Counted from the stretch's first letter, positions 3,175-54,472 are shown. The stretch: 64,000 nt of DNA from Caldilineales bacterium (GCA_037443945.1 JBBINH010000001.1:5965-69964), one strand, 5' to 3'. Numbers and translations are program-made. The notes: generated from the sequence alone by a model not told the origin.

Positions 3175-3278
3175 TGCTCTGTTCTGTTGCGATCGCAATG
3201 GGACAAGGGGGAGGCAAGGCGCCCTTGTTGGGCCGGCAAAGTGTCTCCCAGTGTACCACACTCTTGAGGAGTCTGACC

Positions 3279-5818: not shown

Positions 5819-6603
5819 ACCCAGCCGTGCCCTATACGCCCGCCGAGATCGCCGCCGAGGCCGTAGCCTGCGCGCAGGCCGGCGCCGCCGTCGTGCACGT
5901 CCATGTGCGCGATCCCATCACCGGCGCGCCCTCATCCGACCCGGAGCGGTTTGCCGAGGTGGTGGCGCGCATTCGGGCCGAGTGCGATGTGCTCATCAAC
6001 CTGACGACGAGCGGGCTGCACCTCGAAGGAGAGGATATCGTCAGCCGGCGTCTGGCGCCGATAGCGCTGCGGCCGGAGCTGTGTTCGCTCGATATCGGTT
6101 CGGTCAATTTCCGCGATCGGTTGTTTGCCAATCCACCCGACTGGGGCGAGACCGCCGCCCGGGCCATGCAGGCGGCCGGCGTCAAACCCGAAATCGAGGT
6201 CTTTGATGTCGGTCATATCCATCAGGCCCGGCATCTGATCGAACGCGGGCTGATCGACCCGCCGCCCTACTTCCAACTGTGCATGGGCGTCGACTGGGGC
6301 ATTCCGGCTACGGCCGAAAACCTGCTTTTCATGCAGCGTCAGTTGCCGCCGGGCGCCGTCTGGTCGGTACTGGGGGTTGGGCGGACCCAATTGCCCATGA
6401 TCACCCTGGGCATTCTCCTGGGCGGCCATATCCGCGTCGGTTTCGAGGATAACCTCTACCTGCGCAAGGGGGTCTTGGCCCCGAGTAACGCCGCTTTTGT
6501 GGAGATGGCCGTGAACCTGGCCCATCAACTGCAGCGGGAGGTGGCCACACCGGCCGAAGCCCGCGCCATTCTGGGGTTGAATCCCGTTGCCGCAACCGGG
6601 TAA
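5761..6603 (+). CDS. beta-keto acid cleavage enzyme (BKACE / DUF849, Kce-like)
   Basis: [12 protein letters not shown] start, HVHVR metal motif, [17 protein letters not shown]. Confidence 0.92.
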
Positions 6604-6606
6604 ACC

Positions 6607-7218
6607 ATGTCGTCTTCGGCGCCGCCGTTGTTCCTGCGTCGTCTGAGCGTAGCCCTGGCCATGTGGACGGGGGGCCTTGTGCTGCTGCACTACTTTTGGC
6701 CTATCGCTCCGGTGCGGGAAGCGGTACAACCCGTCCTGCGCACGGTGGTCTTGCTGAGCGCCATGGTGCTGGTGTTGGCCGCCGTGCGCCTGGTGAGGCA
6801 TCATGGGCGTCGATGGCGACAGCCGGAAAGTGCGGCTTTCCTGGTGGGAGCCGGTCTGTCTCTGGGGACAGGCCTGTTGCCGGGGGGATACGAGGCCGGA
6901 CCGGGGTGGTGGGTGTATGCCTGGCTGTTGCGGCCGGGCTGGGCTGCCCTCTTGGCCCTGGTGCCCGTGTTCTTGCTGGCGGCTCTATATCGGCGCCTGC
7001 GAATAGACGAGCCGGCGGCGTTGTTGTTCGTGACCGGTCTGGTGCTTATGCTGGCGGCACAAACACCGGCGGTGGTAGCGATCTGGCCGTGGCTGGCCGA
7101 GCTGCGTCATGCTTTGCTAAGCTGGCTGGTGGCCCCCGTCCTGCGTGGGATCCTCATCGGTCTCAGCCTGGGCGTGGTATGGCGCGTGCTAGCGTATCGG
7201 GGAGGGCGCTCCGGATGA
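6607..7218 (+). CDS. uncharacterised multi-pass membrane protein
   Basis: About 5-6 hydrophobic segments, C-terminal LRGILIGLSLG; ATGA overlap with the next gene. Confidence 0.7.
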   Translation: MSSSAPPLFLRRLSVALAMWTGGLVLLHYFWPIAPVREAVQPVLRTVVLLSAMVLVLAAVRLVRHHGRRWRQPESAAFLVGAGLSLGTGLLPGGYEAGPGWWVYAWLLRPGWAALLALVPVFLLAALYRRLRIDEPAALLFVTGLVLMLAAQTPAVVAIWPWLAELRHALLSWLVAPVLRGILIGLSLGVVWRVLAYRGGRSG

Positions 7219-8258
7219 ACCGTTGTCGCTACTGTGGGGCCGAAAATGCCGACGATGCCACCCTCTGTGCGCAGTGTGGCCGTGTTCTGAACGTGCCGCC
7301 TCCGCAGGTGTTGGCCCAGATTCAAGGCGTGTTGCCGGCCGAACCGGTGATCTGCACCGGACATCTGGCGCCTGAGGACCAAGCGCTCTGGCAAGAGCTG
7401 GTGACGACGGTGATGGCGGCGTCGCCGCCGTCACCCCCACCGGCCGCCGTCGGCCCCGCAACGACGGTCGGGCTCGGTCTGCTGATGCTGGGGGTTATCC
7501 TGATGACGGCCGTGCTCACGCCCCCGGGATGGCGCTCCGACCTGTCGAAGGCGCCTCCACGGCCGGGGGTCGTCGCCGCTTATCATCTCATCGCCGTCTT
7601 ACCGTCCACCGCCCGGGTGTTGTTGGCCTGGGATTACGACCCCACCACCCAGGGCGAGATGCAGCTTCTGGCCCAACCGCTGCTGCGGCATTTGCTCGGC
7701 CGGCGGGTTGCCCTGGTCAATGTCAGCCTGCGGCCTTTGGGACCGGCCATGGCAAGGGCCGCCTTTGCCGACCTGGCAATGCCCGTTCCTCTGCTCCAGG
7801 CCCCGGTTGACCTGGGCTTTCTGCCCGGTGAGAGCGCGGCCTTGCAGGCTCTGGCCCTGGCGCCGGCTGGTGTAGTGCCTCTGTCGGGCGCCGCGCGCGA
7901 CCGTTTGGCCCTAGCCGGGGATGAACCCCTCACCGCCTTCGATCTGATCATCGTGTTCGGTGCCGAGACGACGGCCGGCCGGCAATGGATTGAGCAGATC
8001 GCCGCCCGCCAGCCGGTGCCGCTGATCGTGGTCGCTTCGGGTGCCGTGGCGCCGGTCCTTGAACCCTATGCACAGACCGGTCAGATCCTCGCCCTTCTGG
8101 CGGGCTATCCTGATGCCCTGGCCTATGAGGCGTTGTTGGGCATACCGGGAACGGCAACCGCCCGTCAGACGGCCCAAAGCGCCGTTCATGTGCTTGCGTT
8201 GGTCGTTATCCTGGTGGCCGCTCTCGTCCGTTCCCTTCGCCGCCCCCCGTCGTCATGA
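7215..8258 (+). CDS. uncharacterised membrane-anchored protein with N-terminal zinc ribbon
   Basis: CRYC...CAQC zinc ribbon, a TM helix, soluble domain with LLAWDYDPTTQGEM, C-terminal TM. True start at ATG 7215 within ORF 6663..8258. Confidence 0.7.
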   Translation: MNRCRYCGAENADDATLCAQCGRVLNVPPPQVLAQIQGVLPAEPVICTGHLAPEDQALWQELVTTVMAASPPSPPPAAVGPATTVGLGLLMLGVILMTAVLTPPGWRSDLSKAPPRPGVVAAYHLIAVLPSTARVLLAWDYDPTTQGEMQLLAQPLLRHLLGRRVALVNVSLRPLGPAMARAAFADLAMPVPLLQAPVDLGFLPGESAALQALALAPAGVVPLSGAARDRLALAGDEPLTAFDLIIVFGAETTAGRQWIEQIAARQPVPLIVVASGAVAPVLEPYAQTGQILALLAGYPDALAYEALLGIPGTATARQTAQSAVHVLALVVILVAALVRSLRRPPSS

Positions 8259-8938
8259 ACACCTTCGCCGATCTGTTGGGGCTGATCCTGGCTACCGTCT
8301 TGACCTTGCTCATCTTCGCCCGCCTGTGGGGAGCTGTGCGGGTCTTTTATCCGGTAGCCTATCTGCTCCTGGGCCTGTTGGCCGGCTATGTGGCGGTCGT
8401 GAGCCTGCGCCGGGTGCTGATACCGGGCTTGCTGCTGCCTCTGCAGCAGGCGCAGGCATGGCCGACGTTGTTGTTACCGCTGGGCTTGCTCGTTTTGCTG
8501 CTTTTGCGGATGAGTAGGCAACCGCGCCTGTACCACCTCGGTCTGCCGGCCGTAGGCTGGTTGGCCGGAGCGATGGCCGGATTGGCTTTGGCCGGGGCCG
8601 TGCGCGGGACGCTGCTTCCGCAGATGCTGGCCGTCATCGTCCTGACTCCGACCGAGGGGAGACACCCCGGCCTTGACCCGGTGCTAACGTTGCTGAGCGC
8701 GTTTCTGACTTTGGCCGTGTTGACCCAGGCCTGGCACCGCCAGGAGACGAACCCAACGCTACGGACCTGGCTGACCGTGCCGGCTCGCATCGGGAAGCTG
8801 GCCTTGATGGCCGCAGCCGGGGTGTTTCTGGGCAGTCTGCTTACTGCGCGTCTGGCCCTGCCCATCGACCGGGTGTATGAGCTGGTGGAAGCTTGGAGCC
8901 GCATGATAGGGGGAGGTAATTTTTTTATCTCTTTCTAA
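8255..8938 (+). CDS. uncharacterised multi-pass membrane protein
   Basis: About 6 hydrophobic segments; ATGA coupling to the upstream gene. Confidence 0.7.
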   Translation: MNTFADLLGLILATVLTLLIFARLWGAVRVFYPVAYLLLGLLAGYVAVVSLRRVLIPGLLLPLQQAQAWPTLLLPLGLLVLLLLRMSRQPRLYHLGLPAVGWLAGAMAGLALAGAVRGTLLPQMLAVIVLTPTEGRHPGLDPVLTLLSAFLTLAVLTQAWHRQETNPTLRTWLTVPARIGKLALMAAAGVFLGSLLTARLALPIDRVYELVEAWSRMIGGGNFFISF

Positions 8939-8940
8939 AC

Positions 8941-8982
8941 TGTGACCCAGATCATAGGTGTGGCTGAGAGAGAGATTATAAT
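8941..8982 (+). promoter_or_regulatory. CRP/FNR-family box plus -10 element (class II activated promoter) of the multiheme operon
   Basis: TGTGA-CCCAGA-TCATA at 8941-8956 (9/10 match to TGTGA-N6-TCACA); TATAAT at 8977-8982; no consensus -35. Confidence 0.65.
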
Positions 8983-9015
8983 GCGGAGTATCTGCACCGT
9001 TGCTCCTTTGCCGCC

Positions 9016-10752
9016 ATGTTCTCCGCGCGTGGTTTGTCCAAATGGCTGGGATTGCTGGCCGTCATCGGCTTTGCTGTCCTGAGCGTGGGATGTCGCCCAT
9101 CGCCTACGCCCACGCCTACCCCTACGCCGACGCCGTTCATTCCGCCCACACCGCCGCCAACGGCGGCCGATGTGGGGTTGGGACCGGCGCCAGTGACGAG
9201 TTTGGCCGTGGTTCATCAGCCTTTCGGCGATGGGGCCTGTGGGGCCTGTCATGATCTGCGAGGCTCCGACCCCAGGCAGATGTGGGGCGCAATCCAGGAG
9301 GTGTGCCGCCAGTGCCATTGGCAGGATGTGCCCGATCCGGATAGGCCCCTTGCCCATCCGCATGCGCCTTTTGCCCGCGGGGAGTGTCTAACCTGTCATC
9401 TGCCTCATGCCGGTGCCCATCCCAAGCTGCTGGTGGCACCGGTGACGCAGCTCTGTAACGATTGCCATCAAGACCACGGCGGCATCGTGCAGCAGCCCCA
9501 TCCGCAAGTAGCCCAGGGCGAGTGTAATCTCTGTCATCTTGCGCATGGTTCAATGCAGCCGGCCCTGTTGCGCCAACCGCAGAAAGTCCTGTGCGGCGTA
9601 TGCCATCCCGATCCGATCGATCCCCAGCGTAGTTTTGCTGCCCATGCCGAGGCTCCGGAGCTGACGTGTACGAGCTGTCATGCGCCTCATGATCCGGCGG
9701 CGCAACCGGCGCAAGTGACCCGCGCCATCTGTGTGACCTGCCATGCCGATCTGCCTGTGCCGGCGGATTTCCGCTTTCCTCACAAGCCTTTTGCCGAGGA
9801 GCGCTGCGCCGATTGCCATCCGTCGTTTCATCGGGATCCCGATAGACCGCTTCTGGCGGCTACACAGTCCCAATCGTGCAATGCCTGCCATGGCGATCAC
9901 GGCCTGGTGGTGACCCAGACCCATCCGCAGGTGGCCAAAGGCGAATGCCGTCTGTGCCACGATGGTCATGGCAGCAACCACCCCAACCAACTGGTCAGGC
10001 CCGAAATCGATATCTGTCAAAGCTGTCACGGTGAGGTATTCGCTGCGACCGCTTTTGCCGGCCATGCCGTCGCTCAATTGCCGGCCTGTACGAGCTGTCA
10101 TTCGCCCCACGTACCCCAAACGGCCGGTCCGGCCGTGGCCATGGCCTGCGCAACCTGCCATCAGGATATTCTGGCCGGCCGCAGTCAGCACAAGCCCGTG
10201 AGCCAGGGGGAGTGCAAGGCCTGTCACAGCGAGTTTCACGGTCAACAGCCGACACAACTGGCTGCGGTTCAGACGGTCTGCACCGATTGTCATCAGCTCG
10301 AAAAGGGCTCTATTGCGCATCCGCCCTATCAACAGGGCCGCTGTGAGACGTGTCATGTCGTGCACACCAGTCCGCATACGGCCCTGCTCAATCGCGCACC
10401 TACCCAATTGTGCGGCACCTGTCATGTCTCACAAACGGCCGCTTTCGGACGCAGCCGGCATGCCGCTCACCTGACCGCCCAATGCGCGGCCTGCCATCAG
10501 GCTCACGATGGCTCGATCGACAACCTGCTCCATGCCCGCACGAATGCGCTCTGTGATACCTGCCATCGCGATCTGCCGCACGGCTTCCATCCGGTCAGCG
10601 GGGGGCGCGATCCGGTGCGCGGAGGCGAATTGAGCTGTATCAGTTGCCATGCGCCTCATGGCAGCCCGCATCGGGCCGACCTGCGTGCGCCCGGTGACGG
10701 GCTTTGTCTGAGCTGCCATCGTTTCGAGCAGCCTCCTACAGCGCGAAGATAA
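9016..10752 (+). CDS. 22-heme c-type cytochrome lipoprotein (paired-CxxCH, DmsE/MtrA-like repeats)
   Basis: Lipobox LSVGC, PT-rich linker, 22 CxxCH motifs counted, many in doubled CxxCH..H..L..CxxCH units. Confidence 0.93.
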   Translation: MFSARGLSKWLGLLAVIGFAVLSVGCRPSPTPTPTPTPTPFIPPTPPPTAADVGLGPAPVTSLAVVHQPFGDGACGACHDLRGSDPRQMWGAIQEVCRQCHWQDVPDPDRPLAHPHAPFARGECLTCHLPHAGAHPKLLVAPVTQLCNDCHQDHGGIVQQPHPQVAQGECNLCHLAHGSMQPALLRQPQKVLCGVCHPDPIDPQRSFAAHAEAPELTCTSCHAPHDPAAQPAQVTRAICVTCHADLPVPADFRFPHKPFAEERCADCHPSFHRDPDRPLLAATQSQSCNACHGDHGLVVTQTHPQVAKGECRLCHDGHGSNHPNQLVRPEIDICQSCHGEVFAATAFAGHAVAQLPACTSCHSPHVPQTAGPAVAMACATCHQDILAGRSQHKPVSQGECKACHSEFHGQQPTQLAAVQTVCTDCHQLEKGSIAHPPYQQGRCETCHVVHTSPHTALLNRAPTQLCGTCHVSQTAAFGRSRHAAHLTAQCAACHQAHDGSIDNLLHARTNALCDTCHRDLPHGFHPVSGGRDPVRGGELSCISCHAPHGSPHRADLRAPGDGLCLSCHRFEQPPTARR

Positions 10753-10756
10753 GCCG

Positions 10757-13700
10757 ATGAAGCGTCTGTTCCTGCTCTGGATGACATGGGGCCTCCTCCT
10801 GGTGGCCCTGGCAGGGGGTAACCGTTTGGCGCCTATCGTCGCCGAACAAGGTGCGCCGTTCAATCCGCATGGTCGTTACAGCGCGGCAACGAACAGTTGC
10901 ACGGTTTGTCATGTACCGCATAGCCGTACAACCGATCCCGAGGCGGCCTGCCGCAGTTGCCATCCCCGGATCGTCACCCACAGGGAGCAGACCTGCGCCA
11001 CCTGCCATGCTCCCCACGGCAATACGCCCAATGCCGCCCTTATCCAGGCGGTGGTTCGCGGCAAACCCATGCGCTTTGACGGCAAAAACTTCGATGCCGC
11101 TGCCGATTCCATCTGCCGTACCTGTCACACCACCACGGCCTATCACAGCGCCACGGCCCGGAGCAGCCATTACGAGCAACAGCCTTGCACGAATTGCCAT
11201 CCCCACAGCGCCGGCTTTAGTCCCAATCCGGAGAACTGCGGGGCCTGCCACGGTTTTCCGCCTGCCAGTGGCGCCCATAATCGCCATCGCCAGGCCGATA
11301 TCGGTCTGACCGATTGCCAGGCCTGCCATCCGCAGGTGCGGAACTGGCGCGATCCAGGCCATTACAACGGGCGTGTTGATTTCAAGGACCGGGCCGTGCT
11401 GGCCACGACAGGCGTCTGTAATGCCTGTCATGGCAATGCCGCCGGCATCGCCGAAGCCAAGGCCAACTGGAGCCGTGGTCGCCCTCTGCAGGATTGTACC
11501 GGTTGCCACAACAGCACCCAACCAGGACGGCTGCGGGATCGGGTGGCGCCGGCCGTGGATGCGTTTTGGACGGTCAACGGCCATGGGCAGGGCCACGAGC
11601 AAGGCCGCGATCTGGATTGCCAGGCCTGTCACAATCCGCAGGCGCCTCATTTCGACACGGCCGGCAACCCCCGGTTGTGGGATACCCCGGCTGCCTTGTG
11701 CGCCCGTTGCCATCAGGACCCCGCTCGCGCCGGCGCCGATGTGAGCGCTCACGGCAACCAGGGCTACGCTCAGGCCACCCAACGGCCCTTCGGCGAGACC
11801 TGCGATGCGTGTCATAACCCCCATGGCAGCGCCAATCTGGCGGCCGTGCGCGCTGCTATCCGCGGCAAGACGGTGGTTTTCATCGCCCGCACCGGCGCCA
11901 ACAGCTTCGATTCCCCCAACGACGAGAACAGCCGCGATCTCTGCGCCACCTGTCATACCACGACCCGCCACAATCGTACACCCAGCAATCGCAGTCAGAC
12001 GCCCCATTACGAGGGGCAGGATTGTGGGCAGTGTCACAAGCATGAAACAGATGGCGATCCGCGCACGGCCGATGCCTTCATGCCCCAGGGCGGTTGTATG
12101 GCCTGCCATAGCGACCGGGTGGATAACGGCGATAACATTCCACCCGGTGGCCGCCCGGAGGTCGCCACGGACTTTGCCGGCCGCAGTCATCACATCAAGG
12201 GTGACCTGCTCGACGCCCGCTGTGTGGTCTGTCACGATATGGCCACCCACGGCGACGGCTATATTGACCTACGCCATCCCGACGGCGGGCCTGCTTTCCG
12301 TTTCCTCGAGGCCTCGGCTACCGATCTGACGGCTTTCTGCCAGGCTTGCCACGACGGCGACGGCAGCCGCGTGGCCAGGGTGCCCGGCGCGCAACCGGCC
12401 GATCCGTTCAACGAGGGCAGCGATCTGCTGGCCTTGCCGCCTACAAACACCCACAGCAATCGGGATGATGCCGGCCGCCAGGGCGAGGCGTTTAGCACGA
12501 CCTGCAACGAATGCCATGCCGGACACGGCAGCAGCAATCTGGCCCTGGTCCGCACGGCCATCCGTGGGCAGACGATTGTCTTCACCGCCCGCACCGGTGC
12601 GAATAGCTTCGACGACCCGGATAAGGATGACCGCAACGACCTTTGCGCCACCTGCCACATCGGGCGGACCCGTCTGCATCCGGGTGGCGACCATCGGCCG
12701 GCCGGCGACCTGGACCTGCGCGGGACCGATTGCACCACCTGTCACCGCCACGATGCCGATAACAGCCTTGCCACTCGCGATGGGTTTATGCCCTCGTGTG
12801 GGGCCTGCCATGGCAACCCGCCGCCGCCCGCCGGCAGTCCGCTCTACACTCTCAACGAGAACCTAACTCCGCACCGAAAGCATGCCGGCACCGGGCCGGG
12901 TGAATACGGTTTGGCCTGCAGTACCTGCCATAACCGGTTGGTGCCGTCCTACACTGGCCACGTGACCCGGCCGCCCAGCTTCCAGGATGTCTTCTTCGAT
13001 GCTCTGAATCCCATCGGCAGCTACGATCGCCAGACCCGCACCTGTGCTACCCTGGGTTGCCACAGCAATGGCAATCCCACCGGCGGCCAACTCATCTACC
13101 GCAATCCGGTATGGGCCGAAAACAGCCGTTTGGATTGCGCCGGCTGTCACGGCGATCAGGCCACGTTGGCGACCGGCAGCCACGCCGGGCATCTGTTGCC
13201 TTTCTATCGCGATCGTGGGGCCGATGCTATCGGTTGTTTCGAATGCCATGCCCTGACCGCCCAGAACAACGATAACAACGCCCTGGCCGATTTGCGCAAG
13301 CATGTCAACTTGACCAAGGATGTCCAGTTCGATGTGCGCGACTTGTGGGGGCGATCGGATAACGCCGTCTTCGATCCGAATACCCTCACCTGCGCCAATA
13401 GCCTGTGCCATTCGGATGGTGCGGCCAGCCGCGAACAACCCGATGTTCCCGTCTTCAGCACGCCCAAGTGGGGCGATCGGGCCAGCGGGACCTGTGGCAC
13501 CTGTCATAGTATCACGCCGCAGACGATGACCAGCGGCGCCCACGCGCGTCACTTCGATACCTCCAACCAGGGGCCGGGTATCACCTCGTGTAGCGATTGC
13601 CATAGTCCCTACGGCAGCACCCAACACGTCAACGGCAAAGTTGAATTCGCCGACGGCAAAACCCTGGCGCAGACCACGGTGTGCGATGCCTGCCATAGCC

Positions 13701-14506
13701 CCGGTGGCGGTTTCGACGGCGTAGCCGAAGCGCGCGCGAACTGGGCTACAAGCCGTCCGGTCCGGTGCGAAGGCTGCCATGATGCCCAACCCGCTGTGGT
13801 CCGGGGTGTGACCGCCCCCAACGTGGCCGGCGACGGCCGTACGTACGGCTTTGCCCTCGGCGGACATGGGCGTCTCGGCTTTACCTGCGCCACCTGCCAT
13901 GAGAAGGGGCCCAACAGCATTCACTTCGACGGCGTGGCCCGGACCTATACGGCGGCCGCCGACAACCTGGAAGCCGCCAAATGGCTGGGATTGGGTGGCT
14001 TGAAAGTGCCTATTACCGCCGAGGATCCCTACGTTCGGACCCACTACGCCCAGTGCTACGTCTGCCATCTCGAGGCGAACACGGTAGGTTTGGGACCGGG
14101 CTACAGCAATGCGCTGTTCACGCATAGCGTGCCCCCACCGCCGGGCTATCCTCTAATCGTGGATACGGTTGTCACCCGCTTCCGCAACGAACGGCCCGAA
14201 GGCTTCAACTTCGGCAACGTTCCGGCCAACATCCACTGGGACCACCTAGATATGAACATGGTGAACTGGGATAGCGATGGCGATGGCACGATGGACTCCA
14301 AGCCCTCGTGTGTGACCTGTCATGACCCGCACGGGGTCAAATCCTTCGCCGATGGTGTCACCTATCCGGCCATGACGATCGCCGACATGGGTATCGTCCA
14401 CGGCCAGGATGCTATCGGCGCCTACGGCGAGGTAACACAAACGGCCTACAACAACCGCTGTCGCACCTGTCATCCCGCTGCCGGTATCCGCTATTATCGA
14501 CCGTGA
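10757..14506 (+). CDS. giant secreted multiheme cytochrome c (32 CxxCH + 2 CxxxxCH)
   Basis: Sec-type signal peptide; motifs hand-counted; CATLGCH...CAGCH and CANSLCH...CGTCH resemble the Geobacter CxxxxCH...CxxCH domain. Confidence 0.93.
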   Translation: MKRLFLLWMTWGLLLVALAGGNRLAPIVAEQGAPFNPHGRYSAATNSCTVCHVPHSRTTDPEAACRSCHPRIVTHREQTCATCHAPHGNTPNAALIQAVVRGKPMRFDGKNFDAAADSICRTCHTTTAYHSATARSSHYEQQPCTNCHPHSAGFSPNPENCGACHGFPPASGAHNRHRQADIGLTDCQACHPQVRNWRDPGHYNGRVDFKDRAVLATTGVCNACHGNAAGIAEAKANWSRGRPLQDCTGCHNSTQPGRLRDRVAPAVDAFWTVNGHGQGHEQGRDLDCQACHNPQAPHFDTAGNPRLWDTPAALCARCHQDPARAGADVSAHGNQGYAQATQRPFGETCDACHNPHGSANLAAVRAAIRGKTVVFIARTGANSFDSPNDENSRDLCATCHTTTRHNRTPSNRSQTPHYEGQDCGQCHKHETDGDPRTADAFMPQGGCMACHSDRVDNGDNIPPGGRPEVATDFAGRSHHIKGDLLDARCVVCHDMATHGDGYIDLRHPDGGPAFRFLEASATDLTAFCQACHDGDGSRVARVPGAQPADPFNEGSDLLALPPTNTHSNRDDAGRQGEAFSTTCNECHAGHGSSNLALVRTAIRGQTIVFTARTGANSFDDPDKDDRNDLCATCHIGRTRLHPGGDHRPAGDLDLRGTDCTTCHRHDADNSLATRDGFMPSCGACHGNPPPPAGSPLYTLNENLTPHRKHAGTGPGEYGLACSTCHNRLVPSYTGHVTRPPSFQDVFFDALNPIGSYDRQTRTCATLGCHSNGNPTGGQLIYRNPVWAENSRLDCAGCHGDQATLATGSHAGHLLPFYRDRGADAIGCFECHALTAQNNDNNALADLRKHVNLTKDVQFDVRDLWGRSDNAVFDPNTLTCANSLCHSDGAASREQPDVPVFSTPKWGDRASGTCGTCHSITPQTMTSGAHARHFDTSNQGPGITSCSDCHSPYGSTQHVNGKVEFADGKTLAQTTVCDACHSPGGGFDGVAEARANWATSRPVRCEGCHDAQPAVVRGVTAPNVAGDGRTYGFALGGHGRLGFTCATCHEKGPNSIHFDGVARTYTAAADNLEAAKWLGLGGLKVPITAEDPYVRTHYAQCYVCHLEANTVGLGPGYSNALFTHSVPPPPGYPLIVDTVVTRFRNERPEGFNFGNVPANIHWDHLDMNMVNWDSDGDGTMDSKPSCVTCHDPHGVKSFADGVTYPAMTIADMGIVHGQDAIGAYGEVTQTAYNNRCRTCHPAAGIRYYRP

Positions 14507-15636
14507 CCGATCGGGCTTCGTTTCGCATGCGTTGGTATCATCTGTTTTGGATACTGTGGCCGGTGGTCCTGTTGGGGTCGGCGGCCATGGCCCATGCGCA
14601 GGCCGATCCCAATGCTGCCTGTCTGGTCTGTCATAGCGTGCCCGGCCGTGAAGCCCTGCTCGCCAGTGGTGAACATCTGCCGCTCTACGTGAACGGCGAT
14701 GTCTACCGCCTGTCGGTGCACGGGCAAATGCAATTGCCCTGTACGGCCTGTCATACCCGCATTACGGGCTTTCCCCACGATCCGTTGCTCGCTTTCGACC
14801 GCCGCGATTATCAGCTCGACCATTACGGGGTCTGCCGGAATTGTCATCCCGAGGTCTACGAAGCCACCCTGGATTCGATGCACGCGCGGGCCCTGGCTGC
14901 CGGCCGTCGCGAAGCGGCGATTTGTACCGATTGCCACGGTGCTCATGACATCACCTCGCCCCACAGCCCGCGTCAGAAGATTTCGCTGACCTGCAGTAAG
15001 TGCCATGCCTTTATCTTCGAGCAATACAAGGAGAGCGTTCACGGCGCCGCCTTGCTCGAGGAAAGCAACCCGGATGTCCCTACCTGTGTCGATTGCCACG
15101 GCGTTCATAACATCGAGGACCCGACTACGGCGGCTTTTCGGTTGCGCTCGCCCGAAATCTGCGGGGAATGTCACCGCAACGAGGCCCTGATGAGCCAATA
15201 CGGCATCTCGACGGCGGTGTTCAATACCTATGTTGCCGATTTCCATGGGACTACCGTCACGCTGTTCCAACGTCAACACCCCGATCAGCCGACGAACAAG
15301 GCGGTTTGCTTCGATTGCCACGGCATCCATAACATCAAAGCCGTAGATGATCCGGAAGCCACGGTGGTCAAGGAGAATCTGCTGGAGACTTGTCGTAAAT
15401 GCCATCCCGATGCCGATATTAACTTTCCGGCCTCGTGGACCAGCCATTATATCCCCGACCGCAACCGCTACCCTTTGGTGTACTATGTCAATCTGTTCTA
15501 CCGGATCATCATTCCCGGTACCATCGGCTTTATGCTCGGCTTTGTTGTGTTGGATGCTTTTCGGCGTGTGTTGATGCGGACGCGTCGACAACGGGTCGTC
15601 AAACAGGCTTCCGTAGAGGCCGATCATCATGAGTGA
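14503..15636 (+). CDS. nonaheme cytochrome c with C-terminal TM anchor (CbcL/CbcA-like c domain)
   Basis: Signal peptide, 9 CxxCH, C-terminal hydrophobic helix. GTG 14503 overlaps the upstream stop; ATG 14527 is an alternative start. Confidence 0.88.
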   Translation: MTDRASFRMRWYHLFWILWPVVLLGSAAMAHAQADPNAACLVCHSVPGREALLASGEHLPLYVNGDVYRLSVHGQMQLPCTACHTRITGFPHDPLLAFDRRDYQLDHYGVCRNCHPEVYEATLDSMHARALAAGRREAAICTDCHGAHDITSPHSPRQKISLTCSKCHAFIFEQYKESVHGAALLEESNPDVPTCVDCHGVHNIEDPTTAAFRLRSPEICGECHRNEALMSQYGISTAVFNTYVADFHGTTVTLFQRQHPDQPTNKAVCFDCHGIHNIKAVDDPEATVVKENLLETCRKCHPDADINFPASWTSHYIPDRNRYPLVYYVNLFYRIIIPGTIGFMLGFVVLDAFRRVLMRTRRQRVVKQASVEADHHE

Positions 15637-16972
15637 GCAACCCCGACAGGAGTATGTCCGCTTTAGCCGGACCGACCGCATCGAGCATTTTCTGTTGATG
15701 ACATCGTTCACGGTGCTGGTGATCACCGGGCTGCCGCAGAGGTATGTCTCGGCGTCGTGGGCCGAGTTTTTGATCGAGCTGATGGGCGGCATCGAGACGG
15801 TGCGCATCATCCATCGCGTGGCGGCCATCGTGCTCATCCTCGAGAGCATCTTTCATATCATCACCGTTTCCTATAAGCTGTTCGTGCGGCGGGTCTCGCC
15901 GTCCATGTTGCCCACCTTGCAGGACTTCGTGGATTTTCTCGATGCCCTGCGCTATAACCTGGGCCTGGCCAGACGACGACCCCAGTACGACCGTTACAAT
16001 TTCGAGGAAAAAATCGAGTATTGGGCCGTCATCTGGGGCACGGCGGTGATGATCATCACCGGCTTTATGCTGTGGAACCCGATCACCACGACGAAATTTC
16101 TACCGGGTAGCTGGATCCCGGCGGCCAAGGCGGCCCATGGCGGTGAGGCTTTGCTGGCCTTCTTGGCCATTATCGTCTGGCACGTCTATAACGTCCATAT
16201 CAAGACCTTCAACCGGAGCATGTTCACCGGCAAACTCAGCCGGGAGGAGATGCTGCACGAACATCCGAAGGAGTTGGAACGCATCGAATCGGGCAGGGTA
16301 CGGCCCGAGCCGCCGCGCGAGATCATCCGTCGGCGTGAGCGGATTTTCCTTCCTATAGCCGGTCTGTTTGCCGTTTTGGCGTTGGTCGTGATGTACTTTT
16401 TTGTCACCTACGAAGAAACGGCCATTGCCACGGTACCGACCCCGGCCGAGCGAGCTGCCGTCTTTGTTCCGGCTACGCCGGTGCCAACCACCGAAGCGGA
16501 CGTGCGGCTGGCGCTTTCGCGGAGGCAGGCGCAGCCCATCCCTCATGCCATCAGCGCCGGCCGTGAGAACTGTCTGGCCTGTCATGGGCTGGGGACGCTT
16601 TCGCCTTATACGCCTATCCATGCCAATTTGCGGTTGGGCAACGAGACCTGTCTGGGATGTCATCAGCCGATGCCGGGGGCAACCGCATTACCCGACAACA
16701 TCGCCGTGCCGGGCTTCTCGACCGAGATTTTGCCCATCTTGCGGCGTCGTTGTGTGGTTTGCCATAACCCCGCCACGCCGTTGGATCTGACCAGCTATCG
16801 GAGCATCATGCGGGGAGATGGCAAAGGCCCGCTTGTGATTCCCGGCGCCGCCGGGCAGAGTCGGTTGTTGACTCTGGGCGGGCTTCCGGTGGAGGTGCAT
16901 CCCAGTCGGTTTACTCCCGAGGAAATGGCCCGCATCGGTGCCTGGATCGATGCCGGCGCTCCGGAGAACTAA
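15629..16972 (+). CDS. cytochrome b (FdnI/HyaC-type, CbcL/CbcB-like) fused to three c-type heme motifs
   Basis: RFSRTDRIEH, IIHRVAA, YNFEEKIEYWA, AHGGEALLA, WHVY b-heme domain; C-terminal CLACH, CLGCH, CVVCH. Confidence 0.88.
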   Translation: MSEQPRQEYVRFSRTDRIEHFLLMTSFTVLVITGLPQRYVSASWAEFLIELMGGIETVRIIHRVAAIVLILESIFHIITVSYKLFVRRVSPSMLPTLQDFVDFLDALRYNLGLARRRPQYDRYNFEEKIEYWAVIWGTAVMIITGFMLWNPITTTKFLPGSWIPAAKAAHGGEALLAFLAIIVWHVYNVHIKTFNRSMFTGKLSREEMLHEHPKELERIESGRVRPEPPREIIRRRERIFLPIAGLFAVLALVVMYFFVTYEETAIATVPTPAERAAVFVPATPVPTTEADVRLALSRRQAQPIPHAISAGRENCLACHGLGTLSPYTPIHANLRLGNETCLGCHQPMPGATALPDNIAVPGFSTEILPILRRRCVVCHNPATPLDLTSYRSIMRGDGKGPLVIPGAAGQSRLLTLGGLPVEVHPSRFTPEEMARIGAWIDAGAPEN

Positions 16973-16984
16973 TGAGGAGTCACG

Positions 16985-18577
16985 ATGATTCGCCGTTTTC
17001 GCCTCTGGTTTCGCCAACACTGGCAAAAGGCCCTGGGAATCGCTTTTGCCCTCACCGTCCTCGGTTTGGTTGTTTTTGTCATCGGGGTGACAGCTTGGGA
17101 GTACACGAACAGCCCTGAGTTTTGCGGTGCCACCTGTCACACCATGCCCCCGGAGTACATCGCCTATCAGCAATCGCCCCACGCCCGTGTGGCCTGTGTG
17201 GACTGTCATCTGGGGCAGGAGTCGGTGCTCTATGCTATCCCGCGTAAGGCCAGGGAGGTACGTCACGTCGTTTTTGCGCTCACCCAGGATTACGAAATCC
17301 CGATCTATGTCAAAAGCATGCGGCCGGCTCGCGACACGTGCGAGAAATGTCACGACCCGGAGAAATCCTCGCTGGACAGCGTGCGTACCATTACCCGCTA
17401 CGCTACCGATGCGACCAACACCCCGACCGTCATTCATCTGATCCTCAAAACCGGTGGCGGATCGAAACGCGAAGGCCTGGGGCGCGGCATCCACTGGCAT
17501 ACGGTCAATCAGGTTTACTTCCTGACCACCGATCCGCTCAAACAGAACATCCCCTATGTCAAAGAAGTTCGGGATGACGGTTCGGTGGTTGAGTATTTCG
17601 ATCTGGAAAGCGGCATTACACCGGCCGAGGTGGCAGCCCGCAGCAGCGAATTGCACTTGATGGATTGTATCGATTGTCACAATCGGGTTTCCCATCGCTT
17701 CGCCAAGCCCGATATCGCCGTGGACGAGGCCATCACCCGTCGTCTCATCGATGGCTCCCTTCCGCAAATCAAGCAGAAGGCGGTAGAGTTGCTCTCACAA
17801 CCGTCCGGGACGCGTGCCGAGTCGTTGGCCCAGATCGAGGCCCTGGCGGCCTGGTATGAGCAAAACTACCCCGAGGTATATGCGACCCGCCGCGAGGCCA
17901 TCGACCAAGCCATCGCCAGCCTGAAACGCATTTTCGAGTCCATTTACTTCCCCGATATGGCCGTAGGCTGGAGCACGCACCCTGACAACCTGGGCCATCT
18001 CAACTTCCCCGGCTGTTTCCGCTGCCATGACGGCAAACATACCAGTCCCGATGGGCAGACGATTCGGCTGGAGTGCAACATTTGCCATACCATTCCGCGT
18101 GTGACCGGGCCGGGCTTACCGTCCCCTGTGATCAACCTGGTGCCGGCCAACGAACCCGAATCGCACAAAGACAGCAACTGGCTGGCGCGGCATCGCTATG
18201 AGTTCGATGCCACCTGCGCCGGTTGCCATAGCACCTTTAATCGCGGCGGCAGCGATAACAGTTCCTTCTGCGCCAACAGTGCCTGTCACGGCATCCGCTG
18301 GCAATTTGCCGGGTTGGATGCACCGGGTCTGCGGGCCATTTTGCCCCCGCCTGCAACCTCAGAAGACGAAACGGCACCGACGGAGGAAGAGCAACCCGGT
18401 TTTGTACCCCTGATTCCGCATCCCCTTGGTGAGGAACGCATCGGCCAGTGCCGTACCTGCCACGGCCTGCGCGGCCTGAGGCCTTATCCCGAGTATCATG
18501 AGGAGTTTCCCCTTCAGGCCTGCACCGAATGCCACAAGCTGGCACCGATGCTACGAGGACAAACCTCGTTGCGATGA
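16985..18577 (+). CDS. NapC/NirT-family multiheme quinol dehydrogenase (ImcH-like), 10 heme motifs
   Basis: N-terminal TM, YTNSPEFCGATCH, CVDCH, CEKCH, LKTGGG..GIHWH; 8 CxxCH plus CxxxCH and CxxxxCH. Confidence 0.88.
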   Translation: MIRRFRLWFRQHWQKALGIAFALTVLGLVVFVIGVTAWEYTNSPEFCGATCHTMPPEYIAYQQSPHARVACVDCHLGQESVLYAIPRKAREVRHVVFALTQDYEIPIYVKSMRPARDTCEKCHDPEKSSLDSVRTITRYATDATNTPTVIHLILKTGGGSKREGLGRGIHWHTVNQVYFLTTDPLKQNIPYVKEVRDDGSVVEYFDLESGITPAEVAARSSELHLMDCIDCHNRVSHRFAKPDIAVDEAITRRLIDGSLPQIKQKAVELLSQPSGTRAESLAQIEALAAWYEQNYPEVYATRREAIDQAIASLKRIFESIYFPDMAVGWSTHPDNLGHLNFPGCFRCHDGKHTSPDGQTIRLECNICHTIPRVTGPGLPSPVINLVPANEPESHKDSNWLARHRYEFDATCAGCHSTFNRGGSDNSSFCANSACHGIRWQFAGLDAPGLRAILPPPATSEDETAPTEEEQPGFVPLIPHPLGEERIGQCRTCHGLRGLRPYPEYHEEFPLQACTECHKLAPMLRGQTSLR

Positions 18578-18826: not shown

Positions 18827-18856
18827 TTGACACATTGTTCGTACACCATGTATAAT
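18827..18856 (+). promoter_or_regulatory. consensus sigma70 promoter of the Rieske/cytochrome b operon
   Basis: TTGACA (18827-18832), 18-bp spacer, TATAAT (18851-18856). Confidence 0.8.
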
Positions 18857-19020: not shown

Positions 19021-19857
19021 ATGGCTGATACCGAGACGAAACCCCCTGTGACAACCGGAAAAGAAGCGTTCGTGGCATCCGCCGAGGGCCGCGTGGCCGA
19101 GCGTCGGCGCGGCGGCGATACCACCGGAGTCTCCGCCGATCGTTCGGATGGTGAAGAAGGCGGCATCAGCGAAGCAGCAAAACGTTTCCAGGCCCTGAAG
19201 CAAGGTCAGGCTTTGAAGCAAAGCCGCAAAGAGCGCGAGGCTGCCCTGTTGCGCCGGGCCGTTGATATCGCTCCACGCGTGAGTGCCGAGAGTTTACCCG
19301 AAGCCCAACCGCAAAAGGCGCCTTCGCTACCTATCAACCGCCGCGAATTCCTGACCTATGCCTGGGGCGGTGCCCTGGCCCTGGTTTTAGCGCAGGGCGG
19401 ACTGGCCACCCTGTGGTTTGCCTATCCGCGCTTTAAGGCGGGTGAATTCGGCGGTGTCTTTACCCTCACGAGTATCCCGGAGCGGGGCGCTAAACCTGTC
19501 GAGAATTTGCAGGGTAAGTTCTGGTGGACGAATGCCGAAGAAGGCGGGATAATAGCGCTGTATAAGGTCTGCACCCATCTGGGTTGTCTGTACGAGTGGA
19601 AAGACCAGACCCGTCGTTTTGAATGTCCTTGTCATGGTTCCAAGTTTAATCAATCCGGTCGCGTCATTCATGGACCGGCGGCTCGTGACTTGGATCAATT
19701 TGTCGTTACCGTCCTGGATAGCAACGGTAACCAGGTCGATCAAACCACACCCGATCACCGTTATGTTCTTGCCGGTGAAGGACTGACTTACAAGATCGAC
19801 ACCGGTCGTAAGATTCAGGGTCGGCCTGCTGACCCTGCTCTGGCTGTGGAGGCATGA
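19021..19857 (+). CDS. petC: Rieske [2Fe-2S] subunit of a Rieske/cytochrome b complex
   Basis: Tat-like NRREFL plus TM, CTHLGC and CPCHGS boxes, GPAARDL. Confidence 0.93.
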   Translation: MADTETKPPVTTGKEAFVASAEGRVAERRRGGDTTGVSADRSDGEEGGISEAAKRFQALKQGQALKQSRKEREAALLRRAVDIAPRVSAESLPEAQPQKAPSLPINRREFLTYAWGGALALVLAQGGLATLWFAYPRFKAGEFGGVFTLTSIPERGAKPVENLQGKFWWTNAEEGGIIALYKVCTHLGCLYEWKDQTRRFECPCHGSKFNQSGRVIHGPAARDLDQFVVTVLDSNGNQVDQTTPDHRYVLAGEGLTYKIDTGRKIQGRPADPALAVEA

Positions 19858-19860
19858 GTT

Positions 19861-21471
19861 ATGGTTGGTCAAGATATTCGCAGCCGTGGACTACGCGGTT
19901 ATCTCGGCGCCAAGGCCGACAGCGTCTTCGAACGCATCACGGCCGGCATTCCCTGGCGCGATTTCCGGAAGATGCTGCGCGGGGATCCCCCCGATCGTCC
20001 GAATCCACGCCTGAAACCCCATTCCGAGTCGTTTTGGCTGCATATCAAGCCCACCTACTATCACGAATCGGTCACGCACTTCACCCATACCTTTCGGTTG
20101 GGATTGCTGAGCACCTATCTGTTCGTGGTGGAGCTGATTACCGGTCTCATTTTGATGATCTGGTACGCGCCCACGCCTGAGCGGGCTTATGCGGATATGA
20201 TACGTTTGCTATCCAATGTGCCGTTTGGGCAATTGATGCGCGATATTCATCGTCTGGGCGCAGAGGCCATGGTGATCGTCGTGGTTCTGCATATGTTTCG
20301 GACCTTCTTAACCGGTTCGTACAAAAAACCGCGACAGTTCACCTGGGTGACCGGGGTGGTGCTGCTCATCGCCACGCTTTTCCTGAGCTTTTCCGGCTAT
20401 CTTCTGCCCTGGGACCAGCTGGCCTTCTGGGCCGTGACCATCGGTACGAGCATGGCCGAGGCCTCGCCGACACCGCCGGGCGCCGGCTGGATCGGCACCA
20501 TGCTGTTCGGTACTTCCGACTGGGTGGGTCAATTCGTCAACCTGTTGTTGCGTGGGGCACCCGACATCGGTGCCGGCGGGTTGCTGCGCTTCTATCTGCT
20601 CCATATCTTCTTCTTGCCGCTGGTTGTTATCTTCTTCTTCTTCTTCCACTACTACAAGGTGGTCCATTTCGGCATTTCCTTGCCGGCGAAGGAGGAAGAA
20701 GTCGGTCAGGATACGGCCAACCGGGTGCCGGCCGATAAACGGCGCTATTACCTGATGGACATCGCCATTGACGAGATAGCCCTGCTTTCGGTGGTCACTT
20801 TCGTTCTGGTAGCGATGTCTGCCTTTTTCTATGATGCCAAGTTGGAACACATTGCCAATCCCCTGAAGACACCACTGCATACGACGGCACCCTGGTATTT
20901 CTACTGGCTCCAGGGTTTGCTCAAGATCGGCAACAAAGTGTTTTGGGGCTTGATTGTGCCCGGGATCATGATTTTCCTCACCTTTGCGCTACCGTATCTC
21001 GATTACAATCCCAGTCGTCGCGGGAAGGACCGTCGTTATGCTCTGGTAGCCGGCTTTCTCTTCGCCTCTTGGATCGTGGTCCTCTCCTTCATGGGCCTGC
21101 CCCTCTATGCCGTGCAATCCCCGCCGGCCGAAGAGGTGGTTCAAGAGTTCATGCCCGAAGAAGGGGTCGGCCCCATCCGTGAGATCCCCTGGTCTGAGCT
21201 GGAAATCGGCGTGTATGACACACGGACCTTTGAAGGGAGTGTGCCCTACTCCGAGTTCGAGCAGGTTATCCTGGACTTCAAGGAGCGCATTGCCCGAGAC
21301 CCCGGTTTGCCCAACGGCAGCGGTATTATCACCGTTGAAGCGGCCGGTCCGGGTTTGAAACGAATCAAGTTCCAGATCGATTACACCGATATCGACGGGA
21401 AGCCGGCTCAGTTTATCAAGACCTTCTATCTGCACGAGAGTTCGCTCTATTGGGAGCAATTCACCTTCTGA
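19861..21471 (+). CDS. petB: cytochrome b subunit (b6 plus subunit IV fused) of a Rieske/cytochrome b complex
   Basis: Heme-b histidines in RDIHR, VLHMFR, LLHIFF, FFHYY; [14 protein letters not shown]; Qo motif APWY. Confidence 0.93.
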
Positions 21472-21486
21472 GGAGGCTCACTCCCG

Positions 21487-22617
21487 ATGTACGGTGTATC
21501 CCGTCTTGTCATTGCGACCATGGCGCTCGTGGGCACTTTTGTCGTCGTGCTGCTGACGGCGGCACAGGAACCGGCTCGCATGGAGCGCTATGCGGCCAAT
21601 TTCCACGGCCGCGAGATGGAAGTGGGTGCCCAGATTTATTTCGAGGCCTGTGCCGTCTGTCATGGTCAACACGGCGAAGGGCTGGTCGGTCCGGCCCTCA
21701 ACTCGGCCGATTTGCTGCTACCCGCGCCCGGACAAACGCGTCCTCCACGCTTGCTGGCTAAGAATTACCTGGGGGACTTGCGCAGCTATCTCGAAGGCAC
21801 TATCACCTACGGTCGGCCCGGCACGGCCATGCCTGCCTGGGGACAGGCGGCGGGCGGACCCTTCCGCCCCGATCAGATTGCCGCTGTAGCGACCTTTATC
21901 ATGAATTGGGGACTCGACCCCGGCAAACAGTGGGGCGGCGCATCCGAGCGCGTGGCCATCGGCGGCGTTGAACCGGTACTCGTGACGCCCGCCGTGTCGA
22001 TGGCAACCCCACCCCCTCGCAATGTCCGCAGTGTGGAGCTGGGTAAGTATCTCTTCAACGGCCCGGCCGGCTGTGCCGAATGCCATACCTTCGACATCGC
22101 CACCGGCAAAACCGGCCCCGACCTGACGAACATCGTCCAAACCAAGGGCCGCGATTATGTGCGCACCTCCATCGTCGACCCCAACGGCATGGTGGCACCT
22201 GACCATGCTCCGAGTGTGATGCCGCAAACCTTTGCCTTTGCTCTGACCGACATCGAGCTGGAGTCCATCATCGATTACCTGGAGAATCCGGCGGCCGCAG
22301 CCCAGGAAGCGACTCCGGCACCGGCAGCACCGCTGGACGGCAAGCAGGTAGCCCAAAGCGCCGGTTGTCTTGCCTGCCATTCGGTGGATGGCTCCGCCCT
22401 GGTCGGACCGACCTGGCAAGGTCTTTTCGGTCACGAGGTCGAGTTGGAAGATGGCAGTAAAGTGATCGCCGACGAGGCGTATTTGCGCGAATCCATCCTC
22501 AATCCTGCAGCCAAGATCGTCAAGGGTTACCAGAATCTGATGCCCGCCAACTACGAGCAACTGCTAACCCCGGAGCAGATCACGGCCATTATCGAGTACA
22601 TCAAGCTTCTGCAATAG
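21487..22617 (+). CDS. membrane-anchored triheme class I cytochrome c
   Basis: N-terminal TM; CAVCH, CAECH and CLACH each in a class I domain; last domain GPTWQGL...YLRESI..P. Confidence 0.9.
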   Translation: MYGVSRLVIATMALVGTFVVVLLTAAQEPARMERYAANFHGREMEVGAQIYFEACAVCHGQHGEGLVGPALNSADLLLPAPGQTRPPRLLAKNYLGDLRSYLEGTITYGRPGTAMPAWGQAAGGPFRPDQIAAVATFIMNWGLDPGKQWGGASERVAIGGVEPVLVTPAVSMATPPPRNVRSVELGKYLFNGPAGCAECHTFDIATGKTGPDLTNIVQTKGRDYVRTSIVDPNGMVAPDHAPSVMPQTFAFALTDIELESIIDYLENPAAAAQEATPAPAAPLDGKQVAQSAGCLACHSVDGSALVGPTWQGLFGHEVELEDGSKVIADEAYLRESILNPAAKIVKGYQNLMPANYEQLLTPEQITAIIEYIKLLQ

Positions 22618-22644
22618 GGTACGAGCCCTTGCCGCCTCTCCGCA

Positions 22645-22679
22645 GCCGCCTATCCGTTCCGGATGGGCGGCTTTTTTTT
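22645..22679 (+). terminator. rho-independent terminator
   Basis: GCCGCCTATCCG-TTC-CGGATGGGCGGC followed by 8 T. Confidence 0.9.
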
Positions 22680-54135: not shown

Positions 54136-54237
54136 GACTCGGTCCTCTCTTTTGTTGGTGAGAACGTTTGAACGTTAGAACGTTTGAACGTTATGCCTGC
54201 CTGCCCCTCTTGCGCCAACACACTCCGGAACCGAGTC
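54136..54237 (+). mobile_element. MITE-like element, copy A (102 bp)
   Basis: Ends GACTCGGTCC / GGAACCGAGTC, flanked by direct repeat CAACGATT (54128-54135, 54238-54245); one more 8-bp internal repeat unit than copy B. Confidence 0.85.
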
Positions 54238-54244
54238 CAACGAT

Positions 54245-54273
54245 TTGACAATGGCCGGCGCTTCTGTTACATT
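54245..54273 (+). promoter_or_regulatory. sigma70 promoter of the cobalamin operon
   Basis: TTGACA (54245-50)-N17-TACATT (54268-73) with a TGn extension. Confidence 0.75.
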
Positions 54274-54298
54274 TCCGACGCTCAACCGATATCTCCCG

Positions 54299-54420: not shown

Positions 54421-54472
54421 CGCCACCACCTGCGCGGACAGGCTCGGTGGTTGCAAGGCCTGCAGTCCATGC

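Follow-up and report, generated by a model that had tools for sequence, protein, structure and literature searches.

A 64,000-nucleotide stretch of a Caldilineales bacterium genome (GCA_037443945.1, JBBINH010000001.1:5965-69964; hereafter, the window) carries a compact cluster of five multihaem cytochrome genes, g1 to g5, that we read, with a probability of about 0.6, as a modular, beta-barrel-independent conduit for extracellular or cell-surface electron exchange, connecting the quinone pool to redox partners beyond the cytoplasmic membrane. All five genes lie on the plus strand. They encode proteins of 578 residues with 22 CxxCH haem-binding motifs (g1, 9016-10752), 1249 residues with 32 CxxCH and two Cx4CH motifs (g2, 10757-14506), 377 residues with nine CxxCH motifs (g3, 14503-15636), 447 residues with three CxxCH motifs (g4, 15629-16972) and 530 residues with eight CxxCH, one Cx3CH and one Cx4CH motif (g5, 16985-18577). 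The sum of 74 CxxCH and four variant motifs confirms, in both coordinates and counts, the 78 haem motifs in five packed genes reported by an initial annotation of the window.

These motif counts stand far from chance expectation, since the amino-acid composition predicts approximately 3.5 CxxCH motifs over all six frames of the window, and the four frames unused by g1-g5 contain none. The variant motifs occur in recognised contexts, with the Cx4CH motifs of g2 falling within matches to the CxxxxCH/CxxCH domain (TIGR01904) and the Cx3CH motif of g5 occupying the place of the first haem in NrfH. Adjacent genes are separated by gaps of 4 nt (g1/g2) and 12 nt (g4/g5), or overlap by 4 nt (g2/g3) and 8 nt (g3/g4), and from this spacing alone we infer that the five genes are co-transcribed as a single unit. 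The Caldilineales metagenome-assembled genome (MAG) GCA_026417535.1, which is 86-91% identical and whose contig begins within g2, served as the reference for ratios of non-synonymous to synonymous substitution rates (dN/dS). These were 0.07 for the g2 C-terminus, 0.07 for g3, 0.09 for g4 and 0.06 for g5, alongside 0.04-0.07 for the neighbouring genes of a Rieske/cytochrome b (bc-type) unit, establishing that g2-g5 are real genes under purifying selection.

The five cytochromes and their relatives

The g1 protein is predicted to be a lipoprotein on the basis of the cysteine in its signal peptide, which ends in LSVGC. The signal peptide is followed by PSPTPTPTPTPTPFIPPTPPPT, a Pro/Thr linker of about 25 residues, and then by 11 paired-CxxCH units, at 26 residues per haem. 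The protein matches the Paired_CXXCH_1 family with 269 bits and, in four partial stretches, the DmsE/MtrA decahaem model TIGR03508 with 186.7 bits against a cut-off of 192.2. Its best sequence match in the PDB is 6r2q_A (E-value 1e-10), from an entry entitled "Structure of the Mtr complex"; we take this chain to be MtrA. The same chain is the sole significant Foldseek match (E-value 5.9e-5, probability 1.0, TM-score 0.48 on the target) for the AlphaFold2 (AF2) model of g1, which has a predicted local distance difference test (pLDDT) score of 75.5. By sequence and by predicted fold, g1 is MtrA-like. MtrA and MtrC, with 20 haems between them, span approximately 185 Å, so that a linear rod of 22 haems, which g1 could form, could span roughly 20 nm.

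The Chloroflexi homologues of g1, which carry 18-22 haems, all present a Cys-ending signal peptide followed by 30-60 Pro/Thr/Ser-rich residues. Homologues with 26 haems are found in Acidobacteria and other diderm phyla, at about 30% identity, and most of them lead from a plain Sec signal straight into the haem domain; a few have a lipobox, and none has the linker. In Desulfuromonas and Acidobacteria MAGs (loci L003, 1-14777, and L004, 1-11293), the 26-haem homologue stands beside a second paired-CxxCH cytochrome of approximately 400 residues, near genes encoding PpiC-type rotamases, NHL and beta-propeller proteins and large unannotated proteins, with a cbb3-type oxidase next in L004. The search for porins around the 26-haem homologues in these two loci returned one weak match to an outer-membrane barrel domain (E-value 0.024), too weak for us to count these relatives as porin-linked.

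The g2 protein combines a signal peptide with 34 haem motifs, and is, as judged from its sequence, secreted and equipped with MtrC-type pentahaem domains. It matches Mtrc-MtrF_II-IV_dom (PF22113) with 90.6 bits against a cut-off of 30, Cytochrome_C7 with 132 bits and TIGR01904 with 75.7 bits, and gives no match to the OmcA/MtrC decahaem family model TIGR03507. Only about 17 close homologues, all of them from Chloroflexi, were found among 5.8 billion proteins, and the distant relatives of g2, at 23-30% identity, are giant cytochromes of Geobacter, Geotalea and Desulfuromonas.

At the other end of the cluster, g5 encodes a protein with a single transmembrane (TM) helix (residues 17-35) and an NrfH/NapC-type region (PF03264, residues 16-106; 62.9 bits on the NrfH model TIGR03153) that aligns to the NrfH structure 2j7a_C, with CGATCH, at residue 47, replacing the first CxxCH through a one-residue insertion. 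Its family comprises 529 representative clusters at E-values of 1e-30 or below, and many of its relatives are about 480-510 residues long, with some 100 extra residues at the N-terminus. One of these longer relatives, a protein from a Desulfuromonadales MAG (P0394), 42% identical to g5 over 342 residues (E-value 2e-82), has three TM helices, a CGLLCH (Cx3CH) motif and six CxxCH motifs. ImcH itself is described as having a NapC/NirT-like region, three N-terminal TM helices and seven haems, the first of them bound by a Cx3CH motif, and the ImcH family as ranging over 6-10 motifs and including a homologue with one TM helix in Anaerolinea thermophila (PMC6295460). The g5 protein resembles ImcH in the NapC/NirT-like region right after the TM helix, in the Cx3CH first motif and in the conserved downstream haem motifs, and differs from it in having one TM helix and 10 motifs instead of three helices and seven haems. 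Compared through P0394 rather than through Geobacter sulfurreducens ImcH itself, g5 appears to be a credible member of the ImcH family, of a subtype with one TM helix. The analogy to ImcH drawn in the initial annotation hence holds by homology, given the 42% identity to a protein of ImcH architecture and the shared Cx3CH motif, and its "NapC/NirT protein" label can be sharpened to ImcH-like.

Between these proteins, g3 encodes a cytochrome with a signal peptide, nine CxxCH motifs and, at the C-terminus, a TM helix that leads into a basic tail, and g4 a cytochrome b matching PF01292 and TIGR01583. The alignment of g4 residues 1-227 to FdnI (1kqf_C) retains each of the four histidines that bind haem b, and these histidines (H20, H62, H170 and H185) and the three CxxCH motifs are invariant across 30 homologues. 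Beyond the FdnI-like part come a fifth TM helix (239-257), a Pro/Thr linker and, at the C-terminus, a c domain with three haems, which the helix and linker would place outside the membrane. Among relatives of g4 (loci L026, L032, L034, L047 and L054; proteins P0051, P0063 and P0078), the C-terminal c domain carries 0-12 haems, a variation made up of tandem dihaem modules of approximately 50 residues (IPHPIxG..C..CH..PFP..H....C..CH) behind the Pro/Thr linker. This repeat pattern clearly shows the haem number evolving through duplication of a module.

Taken together, g3 and g4 contribute nine c-type haems (all from g3), a dihaem b domain and six TM helices. In CbcL, a nine-haem c domain lies N-terminal to a dihaem b domain of the HydC/FdnI type within one polypeptide, and a BLAST survey published in 2018 reported no CbcL homologue in Chloroflexi (PMC6295460). 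Judged by composition from that description, g3 and g4 make up the CbcL parts list, and in this compositional sense the CbcL analogy proposed in the initial annotation holds as well. They differ from CbcL in being two genes that overlap by 8 nt rather than one polypeptide, and in the C-terminal trihaem tail added by g4. The g3/g4 pair may thus represent a CbcL split at what would be a cytoplasmic loop, the match being one of parts lists only. A reading of g4 as an N-terminal fusion in the manner of CbcL was rejected, as all longer relatives bear their extra haems C-terminally. The Pro/Thr linkers of g1 and g4, and a Pro-rich stretch ahead of the last two haems of g5, would fit a need to reach from a single membrane through the wall.

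Conservation and genomic setting

A scan of one genome per GTDB species yielded relatives in 531 of 600 candidates, and conservation was assessed on the best 80 species loci among these relatives, 29 of which have full flanks. The same five-gene order is present in GCA_041918515.1 (22, 32, 9, 3 and 8 haems for g1-g5), in GCA_024102915.1 (22, 26, 9, 3 and 8 haems), in three more species loci (L010, L012 and L019) and, from within g2 onwards, in GCA_026417535.1. At least five other Chloroflexota MAGs therefore share this order, and the 22 haems of g1 are kept. The gene immediately 5' of the g4 homologue is a g3 homologue in 78 of the 80 loci, with exactly nine CxxCH motifs in 65 of them, and a g5 homologue is found in 46 (22 of the 29 with full flanks). 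Open reading frames (ORFs) with at least 18 haems are restricted to six loci (4/29 with full flanks) and the g1+g2 pair to about five, where it usually adjoins Rieske/cytochrome b units. We read this distribution as evidence that the g3-g4 pair, sometimes joined by g5, forms a module at the core of the class Anaerolineae, and that g1 and g2 are accessories of a small, Caldilineales-centred group.

The best 80 matches all belong to Chloroflexota, and the nearest named relatives of g4 come from Caldilineales MAGs (87% and 62% identity), followed by Caldilineae, Anaerolineae and other Chloroflexi. Both results agree with the Chloroflexota-like host that the initial annotation had proposed for the contig. 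The sequence occurs in only four sequencing runs, all of DNA and all from a single subsurface metagenome study. A public contig, DAOUAH010000085.1 of GCA_034433475.1 (locus L087), matches positions 757-18577 of the window at 99.6% identity, with 65 substitutions and no gaps or stop codons. Between the two sequences, substitutions are mostly synonymous in g2 (14 nt, 1 residue) and g3 (3 nt, no residues), and relatively more often non-synonymous in g1 (13 nt, 6 residues) and g4 (15 nt, 7 residues); the exact g4 sequence of the window has no database record, being a few residues apart from that of the public contig. In the latter, g1 is intact (8260-9996), yet the recorded gene calls omit it and give small antisense ORFs instead, so that protein-based surveys would miss g1 and those relying on predicted proteins may undercount systems of this kind.

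Downstream of g5, a 443-nt gap leads to the plus-strand, quinol-oxidising bc-type unit. It comprises a Rieske [2Fe-2S] protein (19021-19857; PF00355), a cytochrome b6/subunit IV fusion (19861-21471; PF00033, PF13631 and PF00032) and a class I cytochrome c with three CxxCH motifs (21487-22617; PF00034 and PF13442). The gap holds a promoter-like site, TTGACA-18-TATAAT (18827-18856, plus strand), which matches the sigma-70 consensus at 12 of 12 positions and is identified by that match only. An intrinsic-terminator-like hairpin with a 13-bp stem, nine G-C pairs and a T run lies 3' of the cytochrome c gene (22644-22672, plus strand). Given its own promoter-like site and terminator, the bc-type unit is probably transcribed separately from g1-g5. 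The cytochrome b6 fusion scores 208.9 bits on an ExtP-like NCBIfam model, under the cut-off of 290. The Rieske protein has a charged N-terminal extension of about 105 residues ahead of a twin-arginine motif (RREFL); its length, 275-278 residues, is kept in L001 and L005, and the L010 homologue spans the full length. A dip in G+C content from g3 through cytochrome b, relative to the surroundings, was considered as a mark of horizontal transfer and rejected, as it lies in codon positions 1 and 2 and the G+C content of third positions (GC3) is genome-like.

Rieske and cytochrome b genes accompany the cluster in 19 of the 80 loci (12 of the 29 with full flanks). The unit lies downstream of g5 in three relatives (L001, L005 and L010), and in two relatives a second, divergent Rieske/cytochrome b/multihaem unit is found upstream of the cluster. 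In GCA_041918515.1, two different Rieske/cytochrome b units flank the cluster (L005, 6250-9682 and 19938-21746), the upstream one divergent and including a multihaem subunit of 580 residues, and GCA_024102915.1 has only the upstream type (L002, 66-3593), with a 16-haem protein.

Directly upstream of g1, the window presents three same-strand membrane-protein genes (6607-8938) that match no family, one of them with an N-terminal zinc ribbon, and that are not kept beside the cluster in relatives. Some 35 nt ahead of the first codon of g1, near 8977-8982, there is also a TATAAT hexamer. The other genes of the window are ordinary chromosomal ones, encoding an SbcC-like protein, an M1 peptidase, malic enzyme, biotin carboxylase, PBP1, PriA, argininosuccinate lyase and exonuclease VII. 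Neither Ccm nor Res genes were found among the scanned ORFs of the window, and a tRNA scan of the window returned nothing. The Rfam scan of the window yielded a single match, a cobalamin riboswitch (54289-54429; 48.5 bits) distant from the cytochrome cluster. It precedes genes extending to 61035 that encode a prenyltransferase/terpene-cyclase-like repeat protein, CbiQ, a double ABC ATPase and the S component of an energy-coupling factor (ECF) transporter, which probably constitute a B12-regulated ECF uptake system. The ORF listed at 54184-55611 overlaps the riboswitch, indicating that its true start lies downstream of it.

Proposed electron path and competing explanations

In the conduit that we propose, menaquinol would be oxidised at g5, at g4 or at both, and g3 and the g4 tail would relay the electrons to g1, which would pass them on to g2. 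The g1 protein would operate as an unsheathed wire across the wall zone, and g2 as a promiscuous terminal oxidoreductase acting on Fe(III) or Mn(IV) minerals, humics, electrodes or partner cells. A porin would not be needed in a phylum without BamA-dependent outer-membrane barrels, and the Rieske/cytochrome b units would probably provide an alternative, energy-conserving entry to or exit from the same cytochrome network. Electrons can probably travel along the chain in either direction. We give outward flow no more than a slight preference, on the grounds that ImcH relatives are known so far only from Fe(III) reducers (PMC6295460), and the caution of the initial annotation that direction is not readable from the sequence proved justified.

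The absence of a porin is well supported. Neither the ORFs scanned across the 64 kb nor the Pfam entries on record for L001, L002 and L005, three loci syntenic with the cluster, include a beta-barrel or porin family, and over this range the earlier claim that no MtrB-like beta-barrel gene accompanies the cluster is borne out. BamA and lipopolysaccharide (LPS) genes are absent in Chloroflexota (PMC5808234, PMC7332563, PMC8871954). That the host is a monoderm is only likely and is contested for the phylum, whose envelope has been called unresolved and whose outer-membrane gene pattern is shared with monoderm Terrabacteria (PMC8871954). The initial annotation had gone further, describing a complete quinone-to-surface wire built for a monoderm envelope. 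Its wire is plausible, through two putative quinol modules, the MtrA-like g1 and the MtrC-type domains of g2, and its monoderm setting amounts to a likelihood while the envelope is debated.

Several observations weigh against the proposed conduit. Domain and TM scans recognised no membrane, wall or S-layer anchor in g2, and the AF2 model of its residues 25-680 has a pLDDT of 56 and yielded nothing significant in a fold search. No RNA runs carrying the sequence were found among the sequencing runs matched. The g3-g4(-g5) module is present in hundreds of species of Anaerolineae, in most cases with no giant cytochromes beside it, and may be a general quinol:cytochrome c oxidoreductase that is not specific to extracellular transfer, which leaves g1 and g2 alone to argue specifically for a surface wire. 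Lastly, cryo-electron tomography (cryo-ET) has revealed outer-membrane-like layers in some Chloroflexales (PMC7332563), which belong to the class Chloroflexia and not to Caldilineales.

These layers, seen despite the lack of BamA and LPS genes, and the debated envelope leave some room for an arrangement in which the cell has a non-canonical outer layer, crossed with the help of a non-Omp85-dependent partner encoded elsewhere, and the cluster is only the inner part of the path. The missing anchor of g2 and a view limited to 64 kb of the genome would be in keeping with it. We consider it quite improbable, given that no candidate partner is kept beside the cluster in six syntenic loci, that the gene pattern of Chloroflexota is that of monoderm Terrabacteria and that the tomographic data come from another class. 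A network confined to the wall zone, serving soluble or cell-bound acceptors (nitrite, N-oxides, selenite or tellurite, Cr(VI), sulfur species) or acting as a haem capacitor that stores charge during redox swings, also strikes us as improbable, if somewhat less so. It would account for the near-universal presence of g3-g4(-g5) in Anaerolineae, including Candidatus Amarolinea from activated sludge, usually with partners of 7-12 haems. NrfH-type proteins normally serve reductases of soluble substrates, the neighbouring cytochrome b resembles, below the family cut-off, the ExtP of a selenite/tellurite operon, and giant cytochromes have been suggested to act as capacitors (PMC11495043). A secreted 34-haem protein would nevertheless be a costly route to a soluble acceptor, and the MtrA-like g1 and the MtrC-type domains of g2 have counterparts that serve extracellular transfer in characterised systems. 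Neither in nor beside the cluster is there a CxxCK motif, an NrfA, an HAO, a molybdopterin or copper enzyme or any other catalytic subunit, and a reading of the cluster as a catalytic reductase was rejected for want of both the CxxCK motif and a catalytic subunit.

The same hardware might instead run mainly inward, with Fe(II), reduced minerals, cathodes or partner cells as the electron source, in which case g2 and g1 would collect electrons and deliver them to the trihaem cytochrome c and terminal oxidases, from where they could move uphill to quinones through g3/g4, g5 or the Rieske/cytochrome b unit. This unit lies just downstream, and several relatives likewise have such a unit beside the cluster, one of them on both sides; CbcL/MtoC-type proteins occur in reducers and oxidisers alike (PMC6295460), Fe(II) oxidisers provided the description of the 21/34-haem pair of PCC3 clusters (PMC5566968) and Ardenticatena transfers electrons in both the anodic and the cathodic direction (PMC5808234). 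We nevertheless regard mainly inward flow as unlikely. The window contains no linked oxidase or carbon-fixation genes, nothing in the sequence sets the haem potentials, and the restriction of known ImcH-family proteins to Fe(III) reducers speaks against it.

Returning to the beta-barrel-independent conduit, we tentatively extend it to a broader proposal, which we hold to be possible but doubtful, that MtrA-type wires can work unsheathed. In BamA-less Chloroflexota, a doubled, 22-haem MtrA-like rod, which a lipid anchor and a tether rich in Pro and Thr would fix to the membrane, would take the place of porin-insulated MtrA and dock the free 34-haem g2, and g3-g4 with the one-TM ImcH would be the general quinol:cytochrome c oxidoreductase of the phylum, onto which outer cytochromes are plugged. 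If the rod does work without a barrel, MtrA-type wires would have no inherent need of porin insulation. In sediments, aquifers and bioreactors, members of the class Anaerolineae rank with the most abundant bacteria, and their respiration is poorly known. The cluster offers them a putatively complete parts list for pore-free exchange with minerals or electrodes, made up of its two quinol modules, the 22-haem rod on its tether and the terminal protein with 34 haems. The adjacency of g3 and g4, observed at 78 of the 80 best-scoring loci out of more than 500 matches, suggests that the class shares a respiratory module not so far characterised.

Comparison with known systems

By analogy, the cluster would work like an Mtr/ImcH/CbcL pathway, yet it falls outside the Mtr conduit, CbcL and PCC3 as these are defined. 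The Shewanella MtrCAB complex (6R2Q) shares with it the principle of a rod-like inner cytochrome passing electrons to a larger outer one, with g1 matching MtrA and g2 bearing MtrC/MtrF domain II/IV. In contrast to MtrCAB, the cluster has no MtrB barrel, and its quinol dehydrogenase is not CymA. The g1 protein has 22 haems compared to the 10 of MtrA, is a predicted lipoprotein on a Pro/Thr tether and scores just under the family cut-off, and g2 has 34 haems, no match to the OmcA/MtrC decahaem model and no lipoprotein anchor.

In the PCC3 clusters of Fe(II)-oxidising and further Proteobacteria, as described by He et al. (2017), the median haem numbers are 21 for the periplasmic and 34 for the extracellular cytochrome (PMC5566968). 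The g1/g2 pair (22/34) is similarly haem-dense and repetitive, with a low residue-to-haem ratio and a linked b-type membrane protein, the agreement in haem numbers being a numerical match only. PCC3 is defined, however, by a porin and by a five-TM protein of approximately 300 residues bearing two HX13H motifs, neither of which is present here; the membrane proteins upstream of g1 contain no HX13H pairs, and the b-type protein of the cluster is FdnI-like.

A porin-free multihaem chain that begins at a membrane quinol oxidase, crosses the wall and ends in a reductase at the surface of a cell with a single membrane is known from Thermincola potens and Carboxydothermus ferrireducens (OcwA, OmhA and Smh; PMC7829351). 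The proteins of these two species carry 6-11 haems, and OmhA is S-layer-associated, unlike g2, which has no such domain. At the level of fold, the g1 match to OmhA (6qvm_A) is not significant (E-value 2.6, probability 0.04), and none of g1-g5 has a sequence match to OcwA or OmhA in the PDB.

Within the phylum, the closest precedents come from surveys of Anaerolineae. Porin-less giant multihaem cytochromes are reported there for Anaerolineales, with an explanation based on the envelope (PMC7399161), and a phylum-wide study assigns to its "Anaerolinea" 88 of 124 proteins with at least 20 haems and proposes extracellular transfer (bioRxiv 10.1101/2021.08.23.457424). Both describe giant cytochromes from the same phylum as the window, with GSu_C4xC_C2xCH domains and no porin-cytochrome complex. 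Such cytochromes were noted in surveys from 2013-2021, and the initial annotation overstated the novelty of the system in calling its kind poorly described. In Ardenticatena maritima, anodic and cathodic extracellular electron transfer was demonstrated in the isolate, whose surface cytochrome differs from g2 in having seven haems (PMC5808234).

Our literature search found no report of ImcH and CbcL together in Chloroflexota, and a paper on salt-marsh Anaerolineae is silent on such cytochromes. The Anaerolineae surveys count cytochromes, and the passages of them that were consulted, like the other literature searched, contain no description of the gene order, the class-wide split CbcL-like pair, its ImcH partner with one TM helix, the MtrA-like lipoprotein on its tether or the Rieske/cytochrome b link. 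As far as these sources extend, porin-less giant cytochromes in Anaerolineae were known already, and what the present analysis adds is the gene order in which they are embedded, the modules of which the cluster is composed, the tether of its MtrA-like protein and its link to Rieske/cytochrome b units.

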